Shown here in pieces: positions 3,397 through 20,197 of a DNA stretch of 32,000 nucleotides (position 1 is the first letter of the stretch; each line of letters begins with the position of its first letter). The notes beneath the pieces are model-generated. The model was not told where the DNA came from and made no database searches. It saw only the letters and a list, made by a program, of their open reading frames with translations. This DNA is from Candidatus Electrothrix sp. GW3-4 (GTDB taxonomy: Bacteria; Desulfobacterota; Desulfobulbia; Desulfobulbales; Desulfobulbaceae): the NCBI RefSeq assembly GCF_037902255.1, contig NZ_CP147990.1:1050001-1082000 (forward strand), read 5' to 3'. The position numbers and the translations under genes are program-made.

Positions 3397-3794
3397 TTAA
3401 ATTATGCTAAATTTTGTGTTGACTATGGGGTCCACTTTAGTCTGGGTATCGCTTGGAAGATTTTTGCCAACAAATGTTAAAACTATTTCCAAATTAGTTT
3501 CGTCTATATCTTCTTTGAGAATTGCATCTAGTAAAAATGGCAGCCTATGTGCTGTTTTTGACTTGGCGATCATGGCATTTAAAGCAAAATGATAAGCCAT
3601 AACAGTCTTGTGAAGTTCAACGCCTTGGCGTGGGAAAGAGTGGATGCTGTACAAGTCCAAGTATCTAGGTTCTGTTAACGGCTTAAGATTTAATTGCGAT
3701 GTGTAATCTGAAAATATTTTTTTAAACGCCATTTCTTTTTTTAACCGAGCAGTTATTGTGTCTTGTTCTGTAGCCATAGAATTAAGAGACGCTC
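3397..3794 (-). pseudogene. C-terminal part of the IS630-disrupted Rad50/SMC-like ATPase gene (Walker-B-like lobe)
   Basis: ORF 3397..3777, plus 6 upstream in-frame codons, continues the reading frame of 5028..6211 once the IS is removed. It contains HRLPFLLDAILKEDID, a hydrophobic strand ending in Asp (Walker-B-like). Confidence 0.7.
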
Positions 3795-3881
3795 TAGTGC
3801 TCTGTAAAATCTAAATTTTAGGGTAGCGTATTTAAAATTAATGTAGCATGTTGTCCGAAAAAAAAATTGAAAGAGGATTTC

Positions 3882-4325
3882 ATGCCAAAAAAATACATTG
3901 TCCAATTGACTCCAAAAGAACGCTGTCATTTACAGGAGGTTATCAAAAAGCTTTCGGGGGGCAGCCAGAAAGTCCGTCGTGCTCACATCTTATTGAAAGC
4001 TGATGCAAATGGCCCCTGTTGGAAAGACAGCAGGATAGCAGAAGCATTCAACTGTAGGACAAAAACGGTTGAGAACATCCGTCAAAATTTTGTTTTGCAC
4101 GGTTTTCAACAGGCTCTTGACGGAAAAAAACGTGCAACCCCGCCTACTCCGAAACTATTGAATGGGGAGCAGGAGGTTAAAATCATTGCCACTCGTCTTG
4201 GTTCACCTCCGCCGGGATACGCAAATTGGTCACTGCGCCTTTTAGCCCGACATGTTGTTGAATTGGAAATAGTTCCGTCGATCAGCCATGAAACTATTCG
4301 CCAAGTAATAAAAAAAACGGGATGA
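3882..4325 (+). CDS. IS630-family transposase, N-terminal HTH part (ORF1)
   Basis: MPKKYIVQLTPKERCHLQEVIKK...RRAHILLKADANG is the typical IS630/Tc1-like HTH region. AAAGAGGA lies 4 nt upstream of ATG 3882. The ORF ends just after an A8 run. Confidence 0.85.
   Translation: MPKKYIVQLTPKERCHLQEVIKKLSGGSQKVRRAHILLKADANGPCWKDSRIAEAFNCRTKTVENIRQNFVLHGFQQALDGKKRATPPTPKLLNGEQEVKIIATRLGSPPPGYANWSLRLLARHVVELEIVPSISHETIRQVIKKTG
4310..4317 (+). promoter_or_regulatory. A8 tract: probable -1 programmed frameshift site joining IS630 ORF1 and ORF2
   Basis: An A AAA AAA heptamer lies in the ORF1 frame. A -1 slip gives ..VIKKNGMNNRKIQYWVIPP, which resembles the single-ORF IS630 transposase linker KKN-x-LKPW..W.IPP. 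Confidence 0.6.
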
Positions 4326-5017
4326 ACAACCGGAAAATCCAATACTGGGTTATTCCACCAAAACACGATGCGGAATTCGTGGCCAACATGGAAGATGTGA
4401 TAGAGGTTTATGAAAGACCGTATAATCCTAATCATCCTTTTCTTTGTATGGACGAACAACCAGTTCAGCTGATAAAGGAAACTCGTTTACCTATCCCGGC
4501 AACTAAAAATCATGCTAAACGCGTTGATTATGAGTATGAGCGTAACGGAACAGCCAGTATTTTCATGTTCACCGAGCCTCTTTCAGGCTGGCGTGAAGCC
4601 ACAGCTCGTCCTCGGCGGACTAAAACAGATTGGGCGATCGAAGTGGCTCGCCTCCTTGAAGGTCGCTATGCAGAATGTGAAAAGATAACGTTGGTTTGCG
4701 ATAATCTCAACACCCATACAAAGGGAGCTTTTTATGAGGCTTTTCCTCCTGAACGTGCTCGTGCATTAGTACGCCGGATTGAATTTTGTTACACACCGAA
4801 ACATGGTAGCTGGCTCAATATAGCAGAAAACGAATTGAGCTCCATGACTCGACAATGTCTTGCCAATCGTCGTATAGGAGATATCGAGACGTTACAGAAA
4901 GAGATTGCCGCATGGTCAAGCGATGTGAATAACACTCAACGTGGTGTTGAGTGGCAAATGAAAATTTCTGATGCCCGGTGCAAATTAAAATCCGTTTACC
5001 CTAAAATTAAGTCGTGA
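4322..5017 (+). CDS. IS630-family transposase, DDE catalytic part (ORF2, -1 frame relative to ORF1)
   Basis: WVIPPKHDAEFVANMEDVIEVY, then LCMDEQ, LVCDNLNTH and SWLNIAENE, form the DDE triad context of IS630. The frame is open from 4292 and is in the -1 frame relative to ORF1. Confidence 0.88.
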   Translation: MNNRKIQYWVIPPKHDAEFVANMEDVIEVYERPYNPNHPFLCMDEQPVQLIKETRLPIPATKNHAKRVDYEYERNGTASIFMFTEPLSGWREATARPRRTKTDWAIEVARLLEGRYAECEKITLVCDNLNTHTKGAFYEAFPPERARALVRRIEFCYTPKHGSWLNIAENELSSMTRQCLANRRIGDIETLQKEIAAWSSDVNNTQRGVEWQMKISDARCKLKSVYPKIKS

Positions 5018-5027
5018 CAGAGCACTA

Positions 5028-6211
5028 GTAACTTCTAATTCATTTTCGAATGTTTCAATGTCTGCTTGCATTTTTTTGTATAGCTTAATGTTAGCTTTGT
5101 TATCAATCCACTGTTCAAATGTTACCCCTTCTAGGTTCTTTTCTAAAAGAATACCGTAGTCATCATTAATTTCTTTCTTGATTTTGGCTGTTTTTTTGTG
5201 CGATGAGTTTATTTTTGATTTTTTCTCAATAAGTTTATCAGTAATATGTGATTCAAGTTCAACCGTATCATGATATTTTTGATAGTGGCTATATAATCCT
5301 TCCAAAGAATAAGCCAATACCTGTGTGCAAGCTGGACATCTATCAATGTCGTTGTAATTTTGCTTCTTTATGTTTTTCTTAGTCTTTTTGAGGATCTTAT
5401 GGTGGTTCTGTAATAGAGAAAGTTCATTGCAGAGCCTGATGTAATTATCCCTTTCTTGCTCTAACAAGTTTGACATCTGGATGTATTTTTCAACGTATTC
5501 CTCTGCCTGATCACCAAATGTTTCATCAATCAATTTAGAAAACTGAAGCTCTGCTTTCTTGCTGTATCGCTTGAGGTTGCGAATGTCAGCTGATAGCCGA
5601 TCTTTTTGCTGAGTCAGTTTTCTGTGTTTCACACGGTCAAAGTTATTGCTAACCCCTAGGTAATAATCCAAGTAGTCATCTTTAAAGCCCTTGTAATATT
5701 GAAGGTTAGAAAAAGACTCGCGCAAATACACCCAGCCAACAGATTGAGAAATGTAATATGGCAAAAACATGCATTCAAGTGGAGCGGCCCTCAGTTCACC
5801 CTTCTGTTCTAAATACATTGTGAAACTAACTAAGTCACGTATGTATTCTTTGAGTTTAACGTGCTCAACACTATTGTCTGCATCAATTCCATAGAAAGGA
5901 ACTACTTTGCCACTTGGCTCTTTGACATAAATGGATTTTGGCTCTCTAATAATTGTGTATTCTTCTTCGGTTCCATTGGCTATCTTTGTGAAATCTACTC
6001 TGAAGGTAGGTTGATAACCGAGGATTTCATCTAAATTTTCTCTAACGTCATTAACACCAAAAGTAAATAGTAGGCTCTGAATCAGTGAGCTTTTTCCTGA
6101 TGTGTTACGTCCACTAATAATGTTTGCCCCCGGAGAGAACTCATCGTAGAAGCAGCAATTGTGCAGCTCTGAACTGACAAATAATCTGTTAAACCTAATG
6201 ATTACATTCAT
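5028..6211 (-). pseudogene. N-terminal part of the Rad50/SMC-like ABC ATPase (LmuB-like), truncated by IS630
   Basis: The Walker A motif GRNTSGKS is at 6089-6112. A long K/E/L/Q-rich heptad region is interrupted by CPAC (5327-5338). As it stands the ORF runs on to 4985 through 13 IS-derived codons. The start is ATG 6211 (MNVIIRFNRLF) or GTG 6244. Confidence 0.7.
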
Positions 6212-6219
6212 AGGGAAAC

Positions 6220-7329
6220 CTAGTAGTATTCTACAAATGAGCACAAAGTAGAGAAGAATATGTCGATATCTTTTAGATTCATGCTATGTTGACTCTTGAT
6301 GTCAGAAACATATGCATCAAACATGTCGCCATGACTGTGGTAGTCCATAGAATAGTCATTTTCCCTGATGAATCCTTTGATTATTTGATGTTCATTATTG
6401 CTCATATCTTTTAACAGCTCAAATGTGTTCCTGATGTAATTTTTGTGATGATTCTGGATGCCTATAGGGACTCGAAACTTATGGCATAGCTCCGTTGAAT
6501 AATTTCTCCAAAACTCAAATGTCTTTTGCTCTGTCTCAATGATATCAATTGCCTTCTTGACTTCATCGCCTTCGACTCTCTTGCTACTGTCAAGTAAGGT
6601 GACAACCTTGCCCTGATTGTACACAGCTTCGACTTCTCTGAAGAGGCTAAGAAGTAGCTCAATTGCTGCTAACGGGTCTGAGACATGTGAAAATTTCCTA
6701 CTCATAAGTCCTACTAGGCTATCTTTTTGCCTGTTCTTATTTCGTGGAAAATCGATCCATTGAATGCAAAAGTTGTCCAGTTCAGCTTTGTGATAGGTAA
6801 TCTTTTTCTTTTTACAAAAGTTATCTACTTTCTTGTTTATTTTCTCTTTGATTTCATCAGGAATGGCATTGAAGCCACACTTACAGTTCTGTTCGTTTAG
6901 AAGATACGTTATTTCCTCTTTCCTATCTTTCTTCTCTTTTGCATTAGGCTTGTAGTTCAGTTTGATGTCAGTGTTAGATACGAACGTTAGCTCATGGGTA
7001 TAGTTTGGGCATTTGCGCGCTGGGTCGCTTATAAGATCGTTTCCAACTTCAAGTATTTTTGCAATCACTTCAGAAAATCGTTCATTTATAGTCCAGACGT
7101 TGCCTGAGAGTTTTTTGGCCTGATAAGAATGAATTTCTTTAATATTGCTGCGACAATTTGTTCTATAGCAGAAGAGAAAATCATCGTGATGTTCAATGCA
7201 TAGGAAAAACTCTCTTCCCTTAAACCGGTCGTAATCATCAAGTAGTAAGTACAACGCACAATTACGCTGAAATTCGAAACCTAACAAAGCATCTACACCA
7301 GCGTTCGCTGCTTTTTTCCTTGTGGTCAA
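6220..7329 (-). CDS. DUF4297/Cap4-like PD-(D/E)xK nuclease-domain protein (LmuA-like effector candidate)
   Basis: 369-aa ORF. A TTG start at 7329 has AAGGTGA 4 nt upstream. The N-terminus AGVDALLGFEFQRNCALYLLL...FFLCIEHHDDFLF...IHSYQAKK matches my memory of the G-F-x-F/Y-Q ... E-x2-DD ... Q-x-K core of DUF4297/Cap4 nuclease domains. Its stop lies 8 nt before the ATPase ATG. Confidence 0.55.
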   Translation of the reverse strand: MTTRKKAANAGVDALLGFEFQRNCALYLLLDDYDRFKGREFFLCIEHHDDFLFCYRTNCRSNIKEIHSYQAKKLSGNVWTINERFSEVIAKILEVGNDLISDPARKCPNYTHELTFVSNTDIKLNYKPNAKEKKDRKEEITYLLNEQNCKCGFNAIPDEIKEKINKKVDNFCKKKKITYHKAELDNFCIQWIDFPRNKNRQKDSLVGLMSRKFSHVSDPLAAIELLLSLFREVEAVYNQGKVVTLLDSSKRVEGDEVKKAIDIIETEQKTFEFWRNYSTELCHKFRVPIGIQNHHKNYIRNTFELLKDMSNNEHQIIKGFIRENDYSMDYHSHGDMFDAYVSDIKSQHSMNLKDIDIFFSTLCSFVEYY

Positions 7330-7692
7330 AATTTCACCTTTTAAAAGCTAGAATATTGGAGTTACTTTAGACCGATGCGCTTACTTATAATTATTTATTG
7401 TCGAAATATTTTTTCTGATGACGGTTGAAAATGACAATATTGGGCGAATGCCTCCTAATAATTTGTTCAGCACAGAATTCTAATTCTGCAATCTCCCTGC
7501 ATTGCAACCTACTGCCACAAAAAAACTCCAACGAAAGCTAACTTCTGGATAAAATCTAAACTTTTTTCTCTCTGCGCCCCAAGAAATTACCACTCACTCG
7601 CAAAAAATCAAGACAAAAAGGGTTAACATCTCGTTCTAATTACTTTCTATTACACACCAAGAGACCGCGCGGAACAGCGAACAGACTTAGCC

Positions 7693-10600
7693 TCACTCCA
7701 CCCTCCTCACCCCGGCCCCCTGCACAACACTCTGCCCACCCGTGCCCGGAACCACCTCTAGCTGACAGGCGATCCGCTCCTTAAGAGCCCCCACATGGGA
7801 GATCACCCCGATCAGCTTGCCCTCGCGGCGGAGCCCGGCCAGGGTCTCCAGGGCCGTTTCCAGGGCCTCCTCATCCAGGGCACCAAAGCCTTCATCAAGA
7901 AAGAGGGAGTCCACCCGCACATTGCCGCCCACCATCTCGGAGAGCCCCAGGGCCAGGGCCAGACTGACCACAAAGCTTTCTCCACCTGATAGGTTCTTGG
8001 TGGAGCGGATCTCTCCGGCCTGCCAGGAGTCGATCACGTTGAGTTCCAGGGGCTGGGCCTGATCCCGGACCAGCAGGTAGCGGTCGGTCATCCGGGCCAG
8101 TTGCTCGTTGGCCCGGGAGACCATGAGCTCAAAGGTCAGGCCCTGGGCAAAGTTACGGTATTTTTTGCCGTCTGCCGAGCCGATCAGGTCATGGAGTTCC
8201 TTCCAGCGCAGGCATTCCTTTTTCTGGGCCTCCAGGCCGGTCAGTAGGTCCTGCTGCCGGGCGCGCTGCTCCTTATCCGCCTGTAATTGCTGGTTCAGGG
8301 AACCGATCCGCTCTGTTGCCTGCCTGCGGGCCGTGATCAGCGCTGTATGTTCTTTGCTGAGTTCTTCAGAATCCGTCTCAGTGAGTCGGAGCTGTTCTTC
8401 CTCCTGAAGGCGGGTCTGCCTGTCCTGCAGCCGTTCGTCAAGCCGGGCTCGGCGGTTCTGCAATGCCTCAGCTCGTTTTTGCAGACGGCCCCGTTCCTCC
8501 TCAGGCAGACGTGCGGCCTGCCAGGCCGCCTCATTGGTATACTGGTTTTCCTGCAGCCGTTGCAGGAAGGCCTCCTCCAACCCGGTCAAGGCCTCTGTTC
8601 TCTTGTTGATGGATGCCTCTCGCTCCTTGATCCCGGCCCTGGTTAGCTCGCATTCCCTGAGCAGCTGGGATTGCGTCTTCTGTTCCTGATTTACGCGCTC
8701 TTCAGCCTGGTTACGGGCCGTTGTCAGCTTGCGTTCTTCGGCGTCCGGGTTCTTCTTCTCGCCAAAGAGCTGGAAGCGCTCTTCGCCAAGGGCCTGGCGT
8801 TGCTGGCTGTCCTCGGCTATTGCCTGTTCCAGGTTTGCCAACTGGGCCGCACGTGCGTTCATGCCTGCCTGCACCTCTCGCAGCTCCGTTTGCAGGGCCG
8901 TGATCCGTTCTCCTGCTGCGCTGCAGGCCTTTTGCTGCTGCTGCCAGCAATCTTTGCGGGTGGTCAGGTCGGCAAGGATCTGGGACAGGGCAGGGAGGCG
9001 AAGCTCTGTGATCCCGTATGCTGCCAGTTCTTCCAGGGCCAGGGCGCGGATTTGTTCCAGCTCCTTTGCTGTGGCCTGTTGCTCCTGGCCAAGACGCTGC
9101 TGCTCCTGTTCCGTCTGCTCCTTGACATGAACGGCCCGCTCCTGCTCCTGTATGGTCTGGTTGACCTTGGCCTGCTGCTCCTCCAGGCTCTTGCTGAGTC
9201 GGGCCAGTTTTCTGTCCAGCTGCTCCAGGGCCTCCAGCTGCTGCTGGATGCTGCTCAGCCGTTCTTCAAGCCGACCCAGGCGCGCGGTCAATGCCGAGGG
9301 CGTTTCTTGTTGCAGGCTATTCTCTGCCCCCGGCGCCAGGGCCTCGAATTCGCGGCATTGTTCTGCGATTCGTTCCTCTGCCTCCTGAATGGCCTCTTGC
9401 TTTTCTCGGGTTCGCTCGGCAAGGTTTTGTCCATCCTGGATCAGACGGGCCGCCTGGACCTCGGCCCTGTTCAGCGCCTGTTCCGCCTGCTTTGCAGCTG
9501 TCAGGGCGGCTTGCAGATTTTTTTCATATTCGTTGAGGGGCGGGATATCGCCCGTAGCATAGGGGTGCTCCAGGGCGCCGCAGAGGGGGCAGGGGGTGTT
9601 TTTCCGCAGGTGGGTCCGTTCTTCTTCCAGGTCCCGGATTCGCTTGGCCTGCTCGACCAGGGTCCGTCGGGTTTCCACCTCCTCTTGGGCCTGATCCTGT
9701 TGTTGCCGTAACTGGCGAAGTTGCTGCTCTTGCTCTTTGTTTGCCTCAGCCAGCTCTTTCTGGCGGAGACGGATCTTGGTCAGCTCCTGTTCCACCACTT
9801 CTTTTTTGCGGAGGATTTCCAGCAGACCTCCCAGGATATTGCGCTGCTCAGCAAGGAGGAGCTGTTCCCGGCGCAGCTCCTCCAGTTGCCGTCCTTGCAG
9901 GCGGGCTCCGGCCTCCTCCTGGACCTCTTGCCGTTGCTGGCGAAGAGTGGCAAGATGCTTCTCTGCTGCGGTGCAGGCCTGCACCTTTGCCTGCCAGGCC
10001 TGGGCCGCCAAGCCTGCCTGCTGCTCTGCCTTTTCCAGGGCCGGACCAAGGGCCGCCTGTTTATCAGCAATCTCTCTCAGGCGGGCAAGGGTCTTGCAGA
10101 TGCCTGCCAGATCGCTCATCAGCTGTTCATCCACCTGATGGGCATCCAGATAGGTACGGCTTTGCCTTTGCTGCGCTTGGGCAAGGCTGAGATCCTGTTC
10201 AAACTGAGCAGTCTGTTTTTGTCCTGCGCCGTTTTTTTGTTGGAGATCATGGTGGATAGCCTGTTCTTTACCGATGGCCTGTTCCTTTTCCCGGATGCGG
10301 AGATCCAGCTCCCGGACCTGTTTGAGCAGGCTATGCCCTTGGTCCCAGTTCCTTTGGCAGTGCATGAGCTGATCTTTGCTTCTGGCAAGCCGTTCTTCTA
10401 TCTGGGCAAGGGCCTGTTCCTGGGCTGGTAATCTCTGCCAGAGGGCCTCCACTGTTGCGCGCTCTTCTGCCTGCTGCTCGCGGGTTGCAAGGAGTTGGGC
10501 ATAATCCCCTCCCAGAACCAGGGCCTGTTGGGCTGCCTTGAGTCGGGCCGCATCCTCAGCAAAGGTCTGCTCTTCCTGGGTCAGACCTTCCTGCTCTTTC

Positions 10601-11452: not shown

Positions 11453-12700
11453 TTATTCAGCCATCGGGTCATCCTGCTCCACGGTCAGGGCAATTTCCTG
11501 ATAGGCAGCCAGCAGGGAAGGACGTTGCTCTGGAGGGATGGCATGGGCATCCAGGCAGCGGCTGAAGACCTCTTCATGGTGGAGATCGGCCAAGGTCTCT
11601 TCGGCCTGGACAGGGTGCAGGGCCTGTTCGATAATGCGGTGATTGCGGATGCGCAGGATCTCCAGGCTGCTGTCTGCTATGATTTCATCAAGACGCTGGC
11701 GCAGATCGGCGATCAACTCCTCGCCCTGATAGATAATCTCCAGCCAGATGGCCCGGCCTTCCAGTTTCAGGGTGGTGAGCTCGGCCTGGATATGGTCCCA
11801 GTCCCCCTGGATGCGCTTGATGGCTTGAAAGACCGGGACGGTCAGCGGGGTAACGGTCGGCGGGCCGGATTCAGGGAACGCAAGCAGACAGACCTTCTTT
11901 TCCTTTTCTGCCTCGCCAAAACCCATTACCAGAGGGGCTCCGCTGTAGCGTCGGGTTTCGTTGCCCCCTACCTTTTGCGGGGCATGGAGATGGCCTAGGG
12001 CCAGGTAATCCAGGCTATCCGGGAAAGCGTCCGCACTCACAGAGGCCAGGGAGCCCACATAGAGATTACGTACCCCGTCGCCTTCCACGGTGCTGCCGCC
12101 AGCGGTGAAGAGATGACCCATCCCGATGATCGGCACCGGACGGGCCAGCTTGTTCCGCTGCTCCTCGGCTTCGGCGCAGACCTCGCTATAATGCTGTTTG
12201 ATGCCCTGGACCAGATCCCGTTCCCGGTCATCCTGGTCCTGTCCGGCGACTGCTGTGCGGATATCCCGGTCGCGGAGAAAGGGCACCGCGCAGATGATGG
12301 CCTCGGGTTCTCCGGCCTGATCTTTGAGGACCAGGACTTCCTCGGCAGGCGAGGAGGGCAGGGCGGCCAGGACGTGGATATTAAGGGCGAGCAGGAGTTC
12401 TCGCGGGGCGCTGAGAAAGGTGGGCGAGTCGTGGTTGCCAGCGGTCACCACCAGATGACGGCAGGACGAGGCAGCAACCCGGCAGAGGAAGTTGTAGTAG
12501 AGCTGCTGGGCCCGGTTGCTGGGGGTGGTGGTGTGGAAGACGTCGCCCGCCACCAGCAGGATGTCCACCTGCTGCTCGACTATGGTGTCGTGGAGCCAGT
12601 TAAAAAAGGCGGTGAACTCGGCGTAGCGGTGGCGTCCGTAGAGGGTGCGGCCTATATGCCAGTCTGAGGTGTGGAGGATACGTAAAGAGGGAGAGCTCAA
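11453..12700 (-). CDS. sbcD: exonuclease SbcCD, nuclease subunit SbcD (Mre11 family)
   Basis: LRILHTSDWHIGRTLYG...LLVAGDVFH...VTAGNHD...GHLH are the calcineurin-like phosphoesterase motifs of SbcD. The start is placed at TTG 12700 (MSSPSLRILHTSDWH), giving 415 aa. The longer ORF-track version (to 12922) runs into the repeat array. Confidence 0.85.
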   Translation of the reverse strand: MSSPSLRILHTSDWHIGRTLYGRHRYAEFTAFFNWLHDTIVEQQVDILLVAGDVFHTTTPSNRAQQLYYNFLCRVAASSCRHLVVTAGNHDSPTFLSAPRELLLALNIHVLAALPSSPAEEVLVLKDQAGEPEAIICAVPFLRDRDIRTAVAGQDQDDRERDLVQGIKQHYSEVCAEAEEQRNKLARPVPIIGMGHLFTAGGSTVEGDGVRNLYVGSLASVSADAFPDSLDYLALGHLHAPQKVGGNETRRYSGAPLVMGFGEAEKEKKVCLLAFPESGPPTVTPLTVPVFQAIKRIQGDWDHIQAELTTLKLEGRAIWLEIIYQGEELIADLRQRLDEIIADSSLEILRIRNHRIIEQALHPVQAEETLADLHHEEVFSRCLDAHAIPPEQRPSLLAAYQEIALTVEQDDPMAE

Positions 12701-12819
12701 TTTTTTTTGAAAAGTTAATTGGTTGGCTGTGCTGTGTTTTTGTCCCGCTGCGGCTGAGATGCGCTCTGCCGCAGCTTGTAGGCGATAAATATACAGAGTT
12801 TTCTCCCACAAAGCACGCC

Positions 12820-13071
12820 GGAATCGGCCCAAAGCACACTGGAATTGCCGTAATTCCAATCGGAATTGCTCTGATTCCAACGTGAATCGATCCAATTCCT
12901 GTTGGAATCGGGTCAAAGTCAACAGGAATTGCCCTGATTCAAATTAACATCAGGCCGATTCAAATTTGATTTGCCTTGATTCCAATTGGAATCGTGTCAA
13001 TGTCAGTCGGAATCGGAGTGATTCCAATTGACATCGGGTTAATTTCAATTGACTTTGGAGTGATGCAAACG
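12820..13071. repeat. array of twelve tandem 21-bp repeats (consensus approx. GGAATYGSNNTGATTCCAATT), non-coding
   Basis: GGAAT-type motifs recur at 12820, 12841, 12862, 12883, 12904, 12925, 12988 and 13009, an exact 21-nt spacing. Degenerate copies sit at 12946, 12967, 13030 and 13051. Most units also carry the inverted half-site ATTCC. GATTCCAATTGGAATC at 12978-12993 is a perfect 16-bp palindrome. Of the frames checked, none stays open across the array: the sbcD frame stops at 12944-12946 and the 12976 ORF frame at 12967-12969. Confidence 0.9.
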
Positions 13072-13114
13072 GCAAAGAAGAACGGGTTGTCCGCTCATGT
13101 ACCGCTTTTCAGAC

Positions 13115-14701
13115 CTATCGATACTTGGTTCGATGTGATTGCCAGGCATAAAATTCTGGATAGAACCTTTCGATTAAGATTTGAACCCCTGTTCTTTTCT
13201 TCGGGTCAGGTTCTTTGAGCCATTCTTTCAAAATGCGAAGCTGGGTCTTTTCGAAATTAACTGTAAAATAAAATTCATAGTCCCGATTTTTTGTAACCAA
13301 CCATTCTTTCAGCTCACGAAGAATGGGGGCGTTAGGGACTAAGATAGAATGGAAAGGTCCGTATGTTTTGATATATTTTTTCCAACTAAAATTAGTGAAA
13401 TTAAAGTGATGTATTTTTTCTCTCAATTCCCCCGCTAAATGCACGAACTGAACCAGCTGGTCTGTCGCGCGTAACGGGTCCTGTCCAGTAAGTTGTTCAT
13501 GTACCACTCCCCAAGCCAGGAGAAACTCCTGCACCGTATAATGACTGAAGCGAAAGGCTCGGTCGGAGTTACGATTCAACAGGGAGCGTCCACCCAATTC
13601 AAATTTTTTCAACCAAGAAATGTTTCTATCAGCAAGAATCAACTGTTGTAATTCCTCTTCACTAATAATTTGTGTTCCCTGTCGCTGCATCTGTTCTGCG
13701 ATTTGCAGACAGACGTTAAACAGTTCCTTACGCTCTGGCACCCGTCGTTGCTCATGTTGTTTTTGCAAATTGCGTACTTCGCGATCAAGCCATTCATTAA
13801 CCAATTCCTGATACACTGTATAGGCATTCCAGTACTCCTGAGGATTATCTACTTCTAGCAGCTTGTCTATATGGCTTAACAACAAGGGCCGCATTCGTAG
13901 ATCCTGCATTTGTTCAAGTAGATGGTCTGCCCACTGCCTTTGCTGTCTGACTTTTCCGCTCCTGAACAACAAACGTTGACTGAAGTTCAGAGGTAGTTTT
14001 TTGTTGATGAATTCTTCTACTTGTTCAGGGGAGAAAGGTGAGAGAAAGAGTACCGGACAGTGATAGCCTGAAAGAACTTTGATTTCCGATCGCCCTCTAC
14101 TTTCTGGTTCCATTTCTGGAAAAAATTGAGTGCGGCTTGAGATGATTACCCGACGGAAGTCCTCGCTGGCACGCAATAATTCGAGTAATCGATTTTTAAT
14201 CCGCTTCCAGGCCTGAGGGTCTTCGTCTAAGGCATCGAGAAGAAGGAAGGTCTTCCCTTTGTTTGGTAACTTACTGATTTCTTCTAAAGTCCCATCGCCT
14301 AGCTTAAACAGCTCGCACTTGTATCTTAGCTGCCAAAAATTGGTCAAATGCATTAGTTTAAGCATTAGGAGAAGTGAGGTTTTTCCCATACCCGCATCGG
14401 AGAGGATGAACATCTGGTGACGACCATCCTTTTCTAGCGGCAATTTGCCCTGAAAAAATTGATTGATTCGGTCAAAGGCAGATTGTCGAGCTGCGGACAG
14501 CAGATCATCCTGATGTGCGTCTGCTGGATTTCGATCCTGCAGGTCAGGCACCACGTATACATCTTTGAGTACGTTGGGATCGAAAATAATGTCTGTTAGA
14601 CGGCCAACCTCCTTGGCTCGCTCACCTCTTAGTTTGGCAAGCTTTTTCCAGAGTGGTTTTATCCAGTCAGTTTTGACAAAGGTCAGCCTTTCCAGAGCCA
14701 T
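13115..14701 (-). CDS. NACHT-family STAND NTPase without a recognisable effector domain (bacterial NLR-like)
   Basis: Walker A SDAGMGKTSLLLML, Walker B TFLLLDALDE, RVIISSRTQ, LSPFSPEQVEEF, RPLLL and FSHYTVQEFLLA occur in NACHT order. AGGGGGA lies 5 nt upstream of ATG 14701. Confidence 0.75.
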   Translation of the reverse strand: MALERLTFVKTDWIKPLWKKLAKLRGERAKEVGRLTDIIFDPNVLKDVYVVPDLQDRNPADAHQDDLLSAARQSAFDRINQFFQGKLPLEKDGRHQMFILSDAGMGKTSLLLMLKLMHLTNFWQLRYKCELFKLGDGTLEEISKLPNKGKTFLLLDALDEDPQAWKRIKNRLLELLRASEDFRRVIISSRTQFFPEMEPESRGRSEIKVLSGYHCPVLFLSPFSPEQVEEFINKKLPLNFSQRLLFRSGKVRQQRQWADHLLEQMQDLRMRPLLLSHIDKLLEVDNPQEYWNAYTVYQELVNEWLDREVRNLQKQHEQRRVPERKELFNVCLQIAEQMQRQGTQIISEEELQQLILADRNISWLKKFELGGRSLLNRNSDRAFRFSHYTVQEFLLAWGVVHEQLTGQDPLRATDQLVQFVHLAGELREKIHHFNFTNFSWKKYIKTYGPFHSILVPNAPILRELKEWLVTKNRDYEFYFTVNFEKTQLRILKEWLKEPDPKKRTGVQILIERFYPEFYAWQSHRTKYR

Positions 14702-15347: not shown

Positions 15348-16226
15348 CTATTTCCGCAAGTCGCCGACTTCTCCCGCAGTCAGCCCGGTCATCTCTGCAA
15401 TCTCGTTATCGTCAAGTACACCTTTATTAATGATTTTCAGCGCAATCTCAACAGCTTTTCGCTGTTCTCCCTGCTTGGCACCTTTATTAATACCGGCTGT
15501 ATATGTGGATTCCACCATACTTGCCTGATAATGGAGGTCATCCTGATATCTTTCATAGGCCCGACGCTCTTCATCAGACAGCTTGAGAATATCCAGCTCC
15601 TGCTTGGCCTTCTTTATTCCTTTTGCCTTGAAATCGCTCTTGATCTCCTCGTTTTTCAGGAAATAAATCCACTCATCCAAGGTGTCTTTGGCGATATCGT
15701 CGAATTTATTGACCTTGATCAGGTAGTACTCCGGGAAAATTTCATGGAGCTTATCCTTTCCGTACAGCTCCTGCTGTTCATCAGAAAGCTGCAATACATC
15801 CTGTTCATGCAATCCTCGAAAAGAAGTGGTACCGTGATACACATAGTCGTCTCCGTGCCCCAGATCAAAGTAAAGAATATTGATCGAGATAACCTTGGCG
15901 ACCTTGGAATACGGGTTACTTTCGTGAAGATGCTCGGTGATCACCTTAGAGGTACCAAAGAGAATGCGTTGGAGGTAATCAAACTCCCGTTCGTACTGCA
16001 CTTCAATAATGATAAGCTCTTCCTTCTCGTTTTTTACCTTCAGGTCCACCCTGTTGAATTTATCGCGAGCATCTTCTTTATTGCCTTCACTTTCAAGGAG
16101 TTCCAGGATCCTGACATTTTCCATAAGGAGTTCACTGAGAAAGCCTTCCAGGATTTCAAAGTTGGCCTTGCTCCGCAGGAGTTTTTTCATGGCCCAGTCA
16201 AAGCTGATCAGTTTTCTTCGCGACAT
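15348..16226 (-). CDS. Rpn-family / PD-(D/E)XK (PDDEXK_2, TIGR01784-like) recombination-promoting nuclease / putative transposase, copy 1
   Basis: ISFDWAMKKLL...FLSELL...NRVDLKVKNEKEELIIIEVQYE...YLQRILFGTS...VISINILYFDL is the characteristic D...E-x-Q nuclease core and layout of this family. GGAGCC lies 5 nt upstream of the ATG. Confidence 0.8.
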   Translation of the reverse strand: MSRRKLISFDWAMKKLLRSKANFEILEGFLSELLMENVRILELLESEGNKEDARDKFNRVDLKVKNEKEELIIIEVQYEREFDYLQRILFGTSKVITEHLHESNPYSKVAKVISINILYFDLGHGDDYVYHGTTSFRGLHEQDVLQLSDEQQELYGKDKLHEIFPEYYLIKVNKFDDIAKDTLDEWIYFLKNEEIKSDFKAKGIKKAKQELDILKLSDEERRAYERYQDDLHYQASMVESTYTAGINKGAKQGEQRKAVEIALKIINKGVLDDNEIAEMTGLTAGEVGDLRK

Positions 16227-17059: not shown

Positions 17060-17953
17060 CTACTGTCTCCGCCACTTTCCAACCTCTTCTTCAGGCAACC
17101 CTGTCATCTCTGAGATGTTTTTATCATCAAGTCCCCCCTGTTCTATGAGCTTCCGCGTGATCTCAACCGCTTTCTGCTCCTCGCCCTTTCTCATCCCCTG
17201 CTTGATACCCTTCATTACGCCAAAGGTATACGAGAATTCCACCATACTCTCCTGATAATGCAGATGATCCTGATATCTGTCGTAGGTCCGGTACTCCTCG
17301 TCTGAAAGTCTTGCAACATCAAGCTCCTGCTTGGCCCTCTTTATCCCTTTGGCCTGGAAATTATCTCTGATCTCTCTGTTCTTAAAAAAGTAGATCCACT
17401 CGTCCAGAGTGCCCTTGATAACATTGTCGAACTTTTTGATTTTGATCAAATAATGTTCAGGAATAAGTGCATGTATTGTACTTCTTCCGTACAGCTCCCG
17501 CTGCTCACTGGAGAGCTCCAGCAGGTCCTGACTGTGCAGGCCCCGGAAAGAGGTGGTGCCATGATAGACATAATCATCACCATGGCCCAGGTCGAAGGAA
17601 AGAAGAGTTATCGAGATAACCTTGGCCACCTTGGCGTAGGGTGCGCTTTCGTGAAGATGCTCTGAGACAATCTTGGACGTACCAAAGAGGATGCGCTGTA
17701 AATAATCAAACTCCCGCTCGTACTGGATTTCGATGATAAGTATTTTTTCCTTATCATTTTTGACCTTCAGGCCTACCTGGTTGAATTTATCACACGCATC
17801 GTGCTTATTGCTGTCGCTTTCAAGGAGCTTCAGGATAGTGATGTCCTCCATGAGGAGCTCGCTGAGAAAACCTTCCAGTATTTCAAAGTTGGCCTTGCTC
17901 CGCAGGAGCTTTTTCATGGCCCAGTCAAAGCTGATCAATTTTCGTTGGGGCAT
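17060..17953 (-). CDS. Rpn-family / PD-(D/E)XK nuclease / putative transposase, copy 2 (paralog of 15348..16226)
   Basis: It aligns colinearly with copy 1 over its whole length (MPQRKLISFDWAMKKLLRSKANFEILEGFLSELLME...). The start is placed at ATG 17953 (GGAGAG 5 nt upstream) rather than 17965. Confidence 0.8.
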   Translation of the reverse strand: MPQRKLISFDWAMKKLLRSKANFEILEGFLSELLMEDITILKLLESDSNKHDACDKFNQVGLKVKNDKEKILIIEIQYEREFDYLQRILFGTSKIVSEHLHESAPYAKVAKVISITLLSFDLGHGDDYVYHGTTSFRGLHSQDLLELSSEQRELYGRSTIHALIPEHYLIKIKKFDNVIKGTLDEWIYFFKNREIRDNFQAKGIKRAKQELDVARLSDEEYRTYDRYQDHLHYQESMVEFSYTFGVMKGIKQGMRKGEEQKAVEITRKLIEQGGLDDKNISEMTGLPEEEVGKWRRQ

Positions 17954-18308
17954 TTTTCTCTCCATTTTTTGGATCGTATAATGCTGCTATTTCACCCATT
18001 CATCGCAGCCATAATGCCATGCTTGCAAGGAAAAAGCAATTGGACAGCGCCTCTTTTTATTTCCTGTTGTTCCTTATGTTCCGGTTCTCAGCAATACTGT
18101 TGCTGGGAGATAAAGGGGGAGGGCGATGTTTCTCTGTCCATGGTGTGTCCGGGATGCAGGTGTAATAAAGAGATATCATTAGAGGTGTTATTTATTGTGA
18201 AGAAATATCAAACCCTGCTGGTGAAAAGGCTGTACATAAAATGTAAAATTTTGTACGGTGGCCGAAATAGAATTCTGCCGCAGGGAAAAAATGTTAAGGA
18301 TTGGAAAG

Positions 18309-20027: not shown

Positions 20028-20197
20028 AGTTTCCCTGCGCTGCTTGTGATCAGCGGAGTATTGAGCCAACTCTCATTGATAGGGTGACTTCCCTGCTGCA
20101 TGCTGGAAAACTTCATTGATTTCCTAACTGTGGTATAAGTCGCCCACCTATTTTATAGGTTTAATCATTGCGTTGACACGGCAGGGCGGGGATTTTT
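20028..20197 (+). ncRNA. ssrS: candidate 6S RNA (ssrS); ends approximate
   Basis: It lies directly downstream of zapA, as in E. coli. Long-range pairings are CCCUGC (20033-38) with GCAGGG (20181-86), and GGGUGACUU (20082-90) with AAGUCGCCC (20137-45). Small hairpins sit on each strand of the intervening bubble: GAGU..ACUC, and CCUAU-UUU-AUAGG at 20147-59. The 3' end has a GGGGAUUUUU run. Confidence 0.45.

Follow-up and report, generated by a model that had tools for sequence, protein, structure and literature searches.

The array of 21-bp repeats upstream of sbcD in the cable bacterium Candidatus Electrothrix sp. GW3-4 (Ca. E. antwerpensis; closed 4.64-Mb genome, PMC11247825) is one stray member of a repeat family that, in its conserved form, lies upstream of an fn3-domain gene. 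The array is non-coding, and it is neither an iteron array, nor a centromere, nor an operator of sbcDC. In cable bacteria, the array and a promoter-proximal tail have been copied ahead of sbcD, PFOR, a CLC channel gene, and a PPDK-like gene. These results remove a tempting but wrong reading of the window (the whole 32,000-nt stretch of DNA that was analyzed), namely that it holds an sbcDC operator or a relic origin. They also define a repeat family that extends over the lineage and at which cable-bacteria assemblies break, many of its copies lying at contig ends, and link this family to a conserved array–fn3 module found in 47 of 62 metagenomic lineages.

The array occupies positions 12809–13071 on the minus strand and consists of 12.5 units of 21 bp. 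Unit starts fall at 12820 + 21n (n = 0–11), and a half unit, CAAAGCACGCC, is additionally present at 12809. The family unit joins a 16-bp dyad, GATTCCAATTGGAATC, to a 5-bp spacer and recurs with a 21-bp period; in the window copy, the perfect palindrome GATTCCAATTGGAATC lies at 12978–12993. A 20-mer consensus, GGAATTGCCNTGATTCCAAT, gave five matches with three or fewer mismatches, all five within the array and in phase, where 0.02 were expected from shuffled sequences and five were reached in none of 100 shuffles. Autocorrelation over 12809–13071 was 0.57, 0.57, 0.53, and 0.65 at lags of 21, 42, 63, and 84, respectively, compared with 0.25 ± 0.03 in shuffles, and any of the observed values was reached in 0 of 5000 shuffles. 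As the value of 0.65 at lag 84, the highest of the four, stands so far above the shuffled level, we concluded that the 84-bp super-period, which divides the array into three blocks, is real; autocorrelation revealed no such period elsewhere in the 32-kb window. Units 1, 5, and 9 share a right half of the CAAAG/CAATG type. These data bear out the original prediction, which described twelve exactly phased 21-bp units at 12820–13071, a perfect palindrome at 12978–12993, three 84-bp blocks, and a distinct right half in units 1, 5, and 9, and which can be summarized as a non-coding array with a dyad-symmetric site every two helical turns. The family-forward orientation of the window array is the minus strand (137 bits on the minus strand versus 55 on the plus strand with the 84-bp higher-order consensus). 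The window units are decayed, with 8–16 of 16 core matches and one perfect dyad, and this decay is no greater than in other copies of the same subfamily (subfamily 1, below). An independent short-read assembly of the same strain (Logan SRR28154589) was 100% identical over 8870 bp.

The array was shown to be the core of a non-coding element of ~380 bp that runs from 13100 to 12722 on the minus strand. The 5′ edge of the element (13062–13100, minus strand) is formed by a terminator-like hairpin, GAGCGGACAACCCGTTC (13096–13080), followed by TTTGCCGTTTGCATC (13076–13062), which is a degenerate terminal unit. The same edge was found at loci L010, L018, L020, L039, L043, and L076, and a variant form at L023, L030, and L064. 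The 3′ tail (12722–12841, minus strand), common to copies at other loci, opens with two decayed units, after which come a −10-like box, the GC hairpin described below, and an A-run; it matched the tail profile with an E value of 5e-31 (nhmmer). The −10-like box, TGTATATTT (12787–12795, minus strand), includes TATATT at 12793–12788, has no recognizable −35, and is conserved in four of eight tails, with a variant in the remainder. A promoter role for this box is putative only, since a sigma-70 consensus scan did not call it; neither by eye nor by scan did the tail contain a convincing match to a sigma-54 or sigma-70 promoter. The GC-rich hairpin, GCTGCGGCAGAG-CGCAT-CTCAGCCGCAGC (12747–12775, minus strand), is 92% complementary and conserved with some double changes, although alifold support was weak (−4.96 kcal/mol); it scores as an opposite-strand terminator in L010 and L076. 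The window element is without terminal inverted repeats (TIRs) at either end, and its tail is truncated ahead of the Shine–Dalgarno sequence that fn3-linked copies carry.

On the minus strand, the order of features is nSTAND3-like NTPase gene, terminator-like hairpin, array, GC hairpin, sbcD, and sbcC. The sbcD gene (11453–12700, minus strand; 415 aa) starts with a TTG codon at 12700, 22 nt past the end of the tail; PGAP calls the same start, and the orthologs have their ATG at the aligned position. Given this start, the array ends 109–120 bp upstream of sbcD, in agreement with the ~120 bp originally proposed. The nature of the array as a non-coding repeat also explains why gene callers extend sbcD into it (489 aa versus 415 aa). 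The upstream gene (13115–14701, minus strand) encodes a STAND-like NTPase, and its stop codon lies ~15 nt before the 5′ edge of the element. The array had been described as abutting the 3′ end of a NACHT gene; the product gave only a weak nSTAND3 match (E value 9e-5), below the curated cut-off. The element lies in a variable island that also holds a Lamassu system, PDDEXK_2 genes, and IS elements; no fn3 gene was found in the 32-kb window.

The distribution of the repeat was determined by scanning 185,579 species genomes, among which the GW3-4 genome was not included, with GGAATYGNNNNNATTCCAAYNKGAAT. The scan matched 67 loci, about 22 of which were in cable bacteria: Ca. Electronema sp. TJ (nine loci), PJ (three), KV, JC, nielsenii, and aureum, together with two Desulfobulbaceae MAGs. 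Eighteen of the 20 cable-bacteria loci examined were 21-bp arrays of 4–16 units, and the other two were short contig-end matches. The higher-order periods of these arrays were 42, 63, 84, or 105 bp. Outside cable bacteria, the matches were single sites in coding sequence, with two exceptions: L046, an array in an Actinomycetota MAG, and L054, where two units form an intergenic cluster. The genes next to the cable-bacteria arrays were mutually unrelated and encoded MORN, PFOR, FKBP, NamZ, class-I (Trp/Tyr-type) tRNA synthetase, MurD, CLC, TrkH, histidine kinase, glycosyltransferase, VIT1, Fic, and tail-specific protease proteins, among others. Dispersal over many unrelated loci had been named in the original prediction as an observation that would speak against an sbcD-specific repeat, and this is what we found: more than 20 unrelated intergenic loci of cable bacteria (Ca. 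Electronema and Ca. Electrothrix) carry the repeat, nine of them in one Electronema draft.

The copies fall into two subfamilies. Subfamily 1 comprises the window copy and those at L010, L018, L020, L039, L043, L076, and L077, which have in common a 5′ edge with CCAACGGCTTTTTTGCCGTTTGCATC, an 84-bp block of four distinguishable unit types, and a tail of ~120 nt made up of two decayed units, TGTATATTT, the GC hairpin, GGACAAAAAAACAC, and, in some copies, AAGGAG. All tail-bearing copies with a readable downstream gene are co-oriented with that gene. Besides the window copy, five tail-bearing copies aim at a gene (PFOR, CLC, PPDK-like, and fn3 in two species), the fn3-facing ones being L020, L039, and L076. 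Counted by independent genes, co-orientation is five of five (sbcD, PFOR, CLC, PPDK-like, and fn3), which is suggestive only, with a chance p of ~0.03. Subfamily 2 comprises L024, L032, L038, L052, L063, and L075 in sp. TJ and L047 and L061 in the MAG S01.Bin068. Here, the same core lies inside MITE-like elements (three complete copies of 642–725 bp and five partial ones), which are bounded by 19/20-nt TIRs, TAACCCAAGTTGYGACCT. The right end of these elements bears an additional hairpin, and their orientation relative to neighboring genes is either way. Short direct repeats (TCTTG and AATT) flank two of the three complete copies; the third has none. A link to the IS630-family IS of the window was rejected because the TIRs of that IS (CTAGTGCTCTGT...) are unrelated to those of the MITE-like elements.

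In many phyla, the original home of the repeat family is the region upstream of a small fn3-domain gene. At L020, L039, and L076, the tail leads directly into a Shine–Dalgarno sequence and the ATG of a 201-aa fn3-domain gene. The fn3 protein family gave 367 matches, with ~60% identity across phyla, and extends well outside cable bacteria. In the closed genome of E. aestuarii, a diverged 21-bp array with the unit GATTCAAATTTAAATC is located upstream of fn3 and none is present at its sbcD, and a Sumerlaeota-type contig carries a 12-unit array of ATTTCCAGTTGGAAATGTGGC upstream of its fn3 homolog. We surveyed 80 metagenomic fn3 loci, of which 70 were assessable, with an array defined as a 21-bp period within 700 nt upstream; an array was present in 54 of the 70. 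After dereplication at 95% nucleotide identity, 47 of 62 lineages had an upstream array, compared with 1 of 62 for the control region downstream. The distance from the array to the start codon is just 13–40 nt in some lineages. Many of the modules of other phyla are found in polysaccharide-synthesis loci, for example with Wza/Wzz or glycosyltransferase genes followed by the array, fn3, LamG_3, and a Wzx-type flippase or TPR protein gene, into which PDDEXK_3 or four-helix-bundle genes are occasionally inserted. The array–fn3 module was essentially absent from viral contigs. DNA methyltransferases, which had appeared as conserved fn3 neighbors, proved to be an artefact of alternative-frame ORFs overlapping fn3 in the clustering.

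The design of the unit was constant over lineages, a 16-nt dyad followed by a GAGGC-like spacer, and the sequence of the dyad was lineage-specific (ATTTCCAGTTGGAAAT, ATTGTAAGCTTACAAT, AAATGAAGCTTCATAT, and others), with dyad types that include TTCC..GGAA, GTAAGCTTAC, and TGAAGCTTCA. Across 32 consensus units, the dyad halves were complementary in 84.8% of cells, compared with 66.7% after shuffling, a level that 0 of 500 shuffles reached; double changes were found in 43 cells versus 18 in shuffles, and slid controls were 28–55% paired. Among 234 units, the information content was 0.7–1.6 bits at dyad positions and 0.2–0.5 bits in the spacer core, and the variant spectra were mirror-symmetric between the dyad halves. 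Mirror-symmetric halves and conserved dyad positions are as expected from a strand-blind process acting on double-stranded DNA, although hairpin-templated conversion could also yield such mirror symmetry in the absence of selection. The AlphaFold model of the fn3 protein, of moderate quality (pLDDT 66), shows a three-helix N-terminal domain followed by fn3. No DNA-binding fold was detected in it, as Foldseek returned fn3 matches only and PHROGs and NCBIfam gave nothing useful, and the fn3 protein was rejected as the binder of the array.

Among described elements, BrickBuilt, a MITE of Porphyromonas gingivalis that contains an internal 23-nt minisatellite and for which promoter activity was reported by its authors (Klein et al., 2015; PMC4596501), is the closest analog. 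Both are spacer-free tandem arrays of units of ~20 nt (23 nt in BrickBuilt) flanked by "leader" and "tail" subunits; their ends are small inverted repeats, each genome holds many intergenic copies, and the host range is limited. However, the sequences are unrelated, the unit described here is a perfect dyad of 16 bp that is organized at a higher order of 84 bp, the window copy is TIR-free, and the cross-phylum single-locus form upstream of fn3 has not been described for BrickBuilt. Measured against the features of a MITE, the window copy lacks TIRs and, as expected of a MITE, has no coding capacity; multiple near-identical intergenic copies with unrelated neighbors are present in related genomes (sp. 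TJ with nine loci, sp. PJ with three). Pneumococcal BOX elements are composed of boxA-(boxB)n-boxC with a boxB of 45 bp, and enterobacterial BIMEs are clusters of REP palindromic units of ~35 bp that are not exactly 21-bp phased. REP units are imperfect palindromes that alternate in orientation, number in the hundreds, and go with a RAYT transposase. Both kinds of element are looser parallels: like the present family, they are intergenic and modular, vary in how many internal units they hold, and have palindromic units, in some cases in both orientations, but the unit lengths differ, the sequences are unrelated, and BIMEs lack the exact 21-bp phasing. Full-text literature searches found no description of this repeat or of the array–fn3 module. 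The conserved non-repeat ends, the relatives in TIR-bounded MITE-like elements, and the fn3 context had gone unseen in the original prediction.

The proposal that the array is a phased operator dedicated to a regulator of sbcDC is now highly improbable. The array does lie directly upstream of sbcD with two-turn phasing. However, sbcD orthologs (73–90% identity) occur throughout Electrothrix, and the array was absent upstream of sbcD at all seven other Electrothrix-lineage loci (four closed genomes and three metagenomic contigs), where the upstream gene differs or abuts sbcD, often ending 0–30 bp before it; moreover, the same array and tail stand upstream of unrelated genes. The composition break at which the array had been placed likewise has another source. 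The GC content of sbcCD is 54–60%, compared with 39–50% in the flanks, in five Electrothrix genomes, four of which are array-free. Since every Electrothrix genome examined has an sbcCD richer in GC than its flanks, the AT-to-GC break belongs to sbcCD rather than to the array, and an island boundary made by the array was ruled out. Still more remote is the idea that the array is a packaging site, a centromere, or what remains of plasmid or phage iterons, or that it is translated into a heptad-repeat (IPIGI) protein. Its 12 units of 21 bp are within the ~17–22 bp of iteron direct tandem repeats, and the family resembles tandem operator or iteron arrays that bind dimeric proteins (plasmid iterons and parC/sopC-type centromeres) in its short direct tandem units of about two helical turns, its dyad symmetry, and its half-sites that change together between lineages. 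Unlike those systems, it is chromosomal, dispersed, and tied to fn3 in the polysaccharide loci of other phyla, with no rep or par gene nearby. No linked rep, par, or terminase gene was found among 20 window ORFs (Pfam), no match was obtained in 72,556 plasmids or 50,697 phages (blastn), and 2.9 million viral contigs yielded three isolated single matches only; a plasmid or phage origin was therefore ruled out, and with it the iteron, centromere, or packaging site once suggested. ORFs with IPIGI heptads do cross some arrays, in which such frames are open. Against a coding repeat, no open reading frame spans 12800–13100 in the window, where all six frames contain stops; the numbers of stops in the two mirror IPIGI frames are similar (8 versus 6 in subfamily 1 and ~0 in both in subfamily 2); the ORF tails are frameshifted between copies, and the start codons are not conserved across the subfamilies; and 5.8 billion proteins, when searched, yielded only 18 hypothetical ORFs, all singletons. 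The apparent heptad ORFs are thus by-products of the 7-codon period, as first proposed.

What the family does is most plausibly, though with less than even confidence, explained by a phased double-stranded DNA platform for a dimeric protein, with the array copied to new promoters. This model fits best because the phased dyad is kept across phyla, its halves co-vary, and a strand-specific RNA signature is missing; dyad symmetry, helical phasing, and co-varying half-sites are the features of a phased operator array for a dimeric DNA-binding protein. Each dyad would be occupied by a dimer of one candidate protein that binds DNA sequence-specifically. With sites two turns apart, all dimers would sit on the same helical face, so that they could load cooperatively and act on the adjacent promoter. 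The array may grow and shrink in 21- and 84-bp steps via slippage or unequal recombination, and cable bacteria may have moved the module to new genes, partly by the MITE-like vehicle. Several observations run counter to this model: the only conserved neighbor, the fn3 protein, shows no DNA-binding fold; the window copy has neither a called sigma-70-like promoter in its tail nor TIRs, and its units are decayed; arrays that stop 13–40 nt short of a start codon would suit an RNA-level role as well; and the mirror symmetry has the alternative source named above. A serious rival is an element that may act at the RNA level, which we consider possible but less probable. The array would be transcribed, by read-through or from its own promoter, as tandem hairpins with conserved purine-rich linkers (GAGGC and AGGGC) in a long 5′ leader, serving stabilization, processing, translation control, or antitermination as in polysaccharide operons. 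Co-direction with the downstream gene in every tail-bearing copy argues for this reading, as does the position of the EPS-locus arrays between co-directional genes (Wza/Wzz, array, fn3-LamG-Wzx). Arrays that end 13–40 nt from a start codon must be partly transcribed in those lineages and hence partly in the mRNA; the covariation of the dyad is compatible with stems that have a 4-nt loop and a near-invariant A7/T10; and the conserved tail hairpin is followed by an A-rich linker and, in fn3 copies, a Shine–Dalgarno sequence. However, G.U-compatible mismatches were not in excess over A.C mismatches on either strand: G.T versus A.C counts were 153 versus 150 and 154 versus 158 in the two hairpin registers, and 514 versus 457 across phyla. 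The mirror symmetry of the variant spectra, the pairing within arrays (~66% of positions Watson–Crick paired, with uncompensated decay), and the occurrence of MITE-like copies in either orientation relative to genes also argue against an RNA role. Rfam 15 contained no family that matched the array at the gathering score, with only sub-threshold miRNA-hairpin noise in permissive mode; together with the weak tail alifold, strand-specific RNA hairpins thus gained no support. Compensatory pairing between adjacent units (AAAGTC...GACTTT) was seen in some subfamily-1 blocks, was not systematic, and was absent in subfamily 2.

The window copy may also have no function where it stands. It would then be a decaying remnant, left by a recombinational duplication or by a selfish minisatellite element of the MITE-like kind, and would affect sbcDC through spacing only. 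We regard this as somewhat less probable again than an RNA leader. The absence of the array at all seven other sbcD loci is in keeping with it, as are the missing TIRs at both ends, the truncation of the tail before the Shine–Dalgarno sequence of the fn3 copies, the setting in the variable island described above, and the status of the closest described analog as a MITE with an internal 23-nt minisatellite (PMC4596501). Moreover, the units are decayed, and as only one of them is a perfect dyad, the window copy may be decaying. On the other hand, this copy is no more decayed than the other subfamily-1 copies, the dyad is far better conserved than the spacer, and five of five independent tail-bearing copies aim at a downstream gene. 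Because the element ends 22 nt before the sbcD start, transcription of sbcD must either begin in the element or pass through it, which also speaks against a mere relic. Under the dimeric-protein model, the element would separate sbcD from the upstream gene, and the link to sbcD would be a recent lineage-specific accident rather than a dedicated operator.

If the family is indeed a protein-binding platform, it would show in nature how a mobile element can copy a regulatory site to new genes, and the co-variation of dyad and protein would offer a handle for finding the regulator of a widespread gene pair in polysaccharide loci. A bolder and unlikely extension is that the 21-bp arrays constitute an unrecognized cross-phylum cis-regulatory device of Wzx/Wzy-type polysaccharide loci, placed before the fn3–LamG pair and either read by a co-evolving dimeric protein or acting as hairpins for an operon-specific antiterminator; its mobilization in cable bacteria, as TIR-bounded and TIR-less copies, would have wired sbcDC, PFOR, CLC, and the PPDK-like gene into the same circuit. 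Elsewhere in the window, Rfam identified a 6S RNA.

Two start codons were considered for sbcD. In Logan contigs, automatic gene calls begin the gene at TTG 12922, inside the 21-bp repeat array, giving a protein of 489 aa (11453-12922, minus strand). Both the PGAP annotation and the alignment of orthologues favored TTG 12700, which yields a protein of 415 aa. No Shine-Dalgarno sequence was found at sbcD, either in the window or in its relatives.

To the 5' side of sbcD, four loci of the Electrothrix lineage (L004, L005, L081, and L082) carry a co-directional gene encoding an SMC_N/AAA_15 ATPase of approximately 950 aa. In L004, L005, and L081, the end of this gene is at most 20 nt away from the start of sbcD, and three small genes separate the two in L082. 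This arrangement may represent an ancestral three-gene order that has been lost from the window. In Candidatus Electrothrix aestuarii (L002, CP159373), an inverted pair of 13-nt repeats, GGGAGCATTCCCT, with approximately 190 bp between them, is located upstream of sbcD (7650-8000), and an IS110-family transposase gene (9477-10448) is inserted between sbcD and sbcC. A PDDEXK_2 gene was also observed near sbcD in this locus, as in the window.

Further arrays were observed at other loci. At L046, on a 1.07-Mb contig of the Actinomycetota MAG MFD05512.bin.1.38, approximately 12 TTCC-N4-GGAATTG units form an intergenic 21-bp array (6680-6900) that adjoins a DUF433/PIN-like gene pair, and no fn3 gene was found near it. 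Either the array occurs on its own in a different phylum, or the contig has been misbinned. A 209-kb contig (L077, JGI 3300048585) contains two arrays of the 21-bp repeat family within 5 kb (418-680 and 5100-5380), which bracket a gene encoding a PPDK-like protein of 1415 aa. Different tandem units were observed in Electronema sp. TJ: a 44-bp unit repeated 5.8 times with 99% identity at a contig start (L063, 1-254), and a 102-bp unit repeated seven times within an ORF of 969 aa (L038, 3386-4113).

Very short contigs hold most of the fn3 homologues (L087-L166), as would be expected if assemblies break at the arrays. In these loci, small genes of the PDDEXK_3 (GxxExxY-type) and 23S_rRNA_IVP/four-helix-bundle families recur as insertions between fn3 and the LamG_3 gene, which lies downstream of fn3.

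Elsewhere in the window, a pair of Lamassu defense genes is encoded on the minus strand: LmuA (6220-7329, E 5e-147) and its partner LmuB (4985-6244), whose match spans only positions 1-395 of the 582-position profile. An IS630-family insertion with HTH_32 and DDE_3 ORFs (3867-5017), bounded by 32-bp terminal inverted repeats (3794-3825 and 4997-5028), appears to have caused the truncation of LmuB.

Two PDDEXK_2 (Rpn/transposase-like) paralogues on the minus strand (15348-16226 and 17060-17965) share approximately 76% identity across 695 nt, with a DUF922 gene between them. The 6S RNA (SsrS) gene was detected on the plus strand (20029-20196, 66.7 bits), and the RNase Y and TyrRS genes lie downstream of it.
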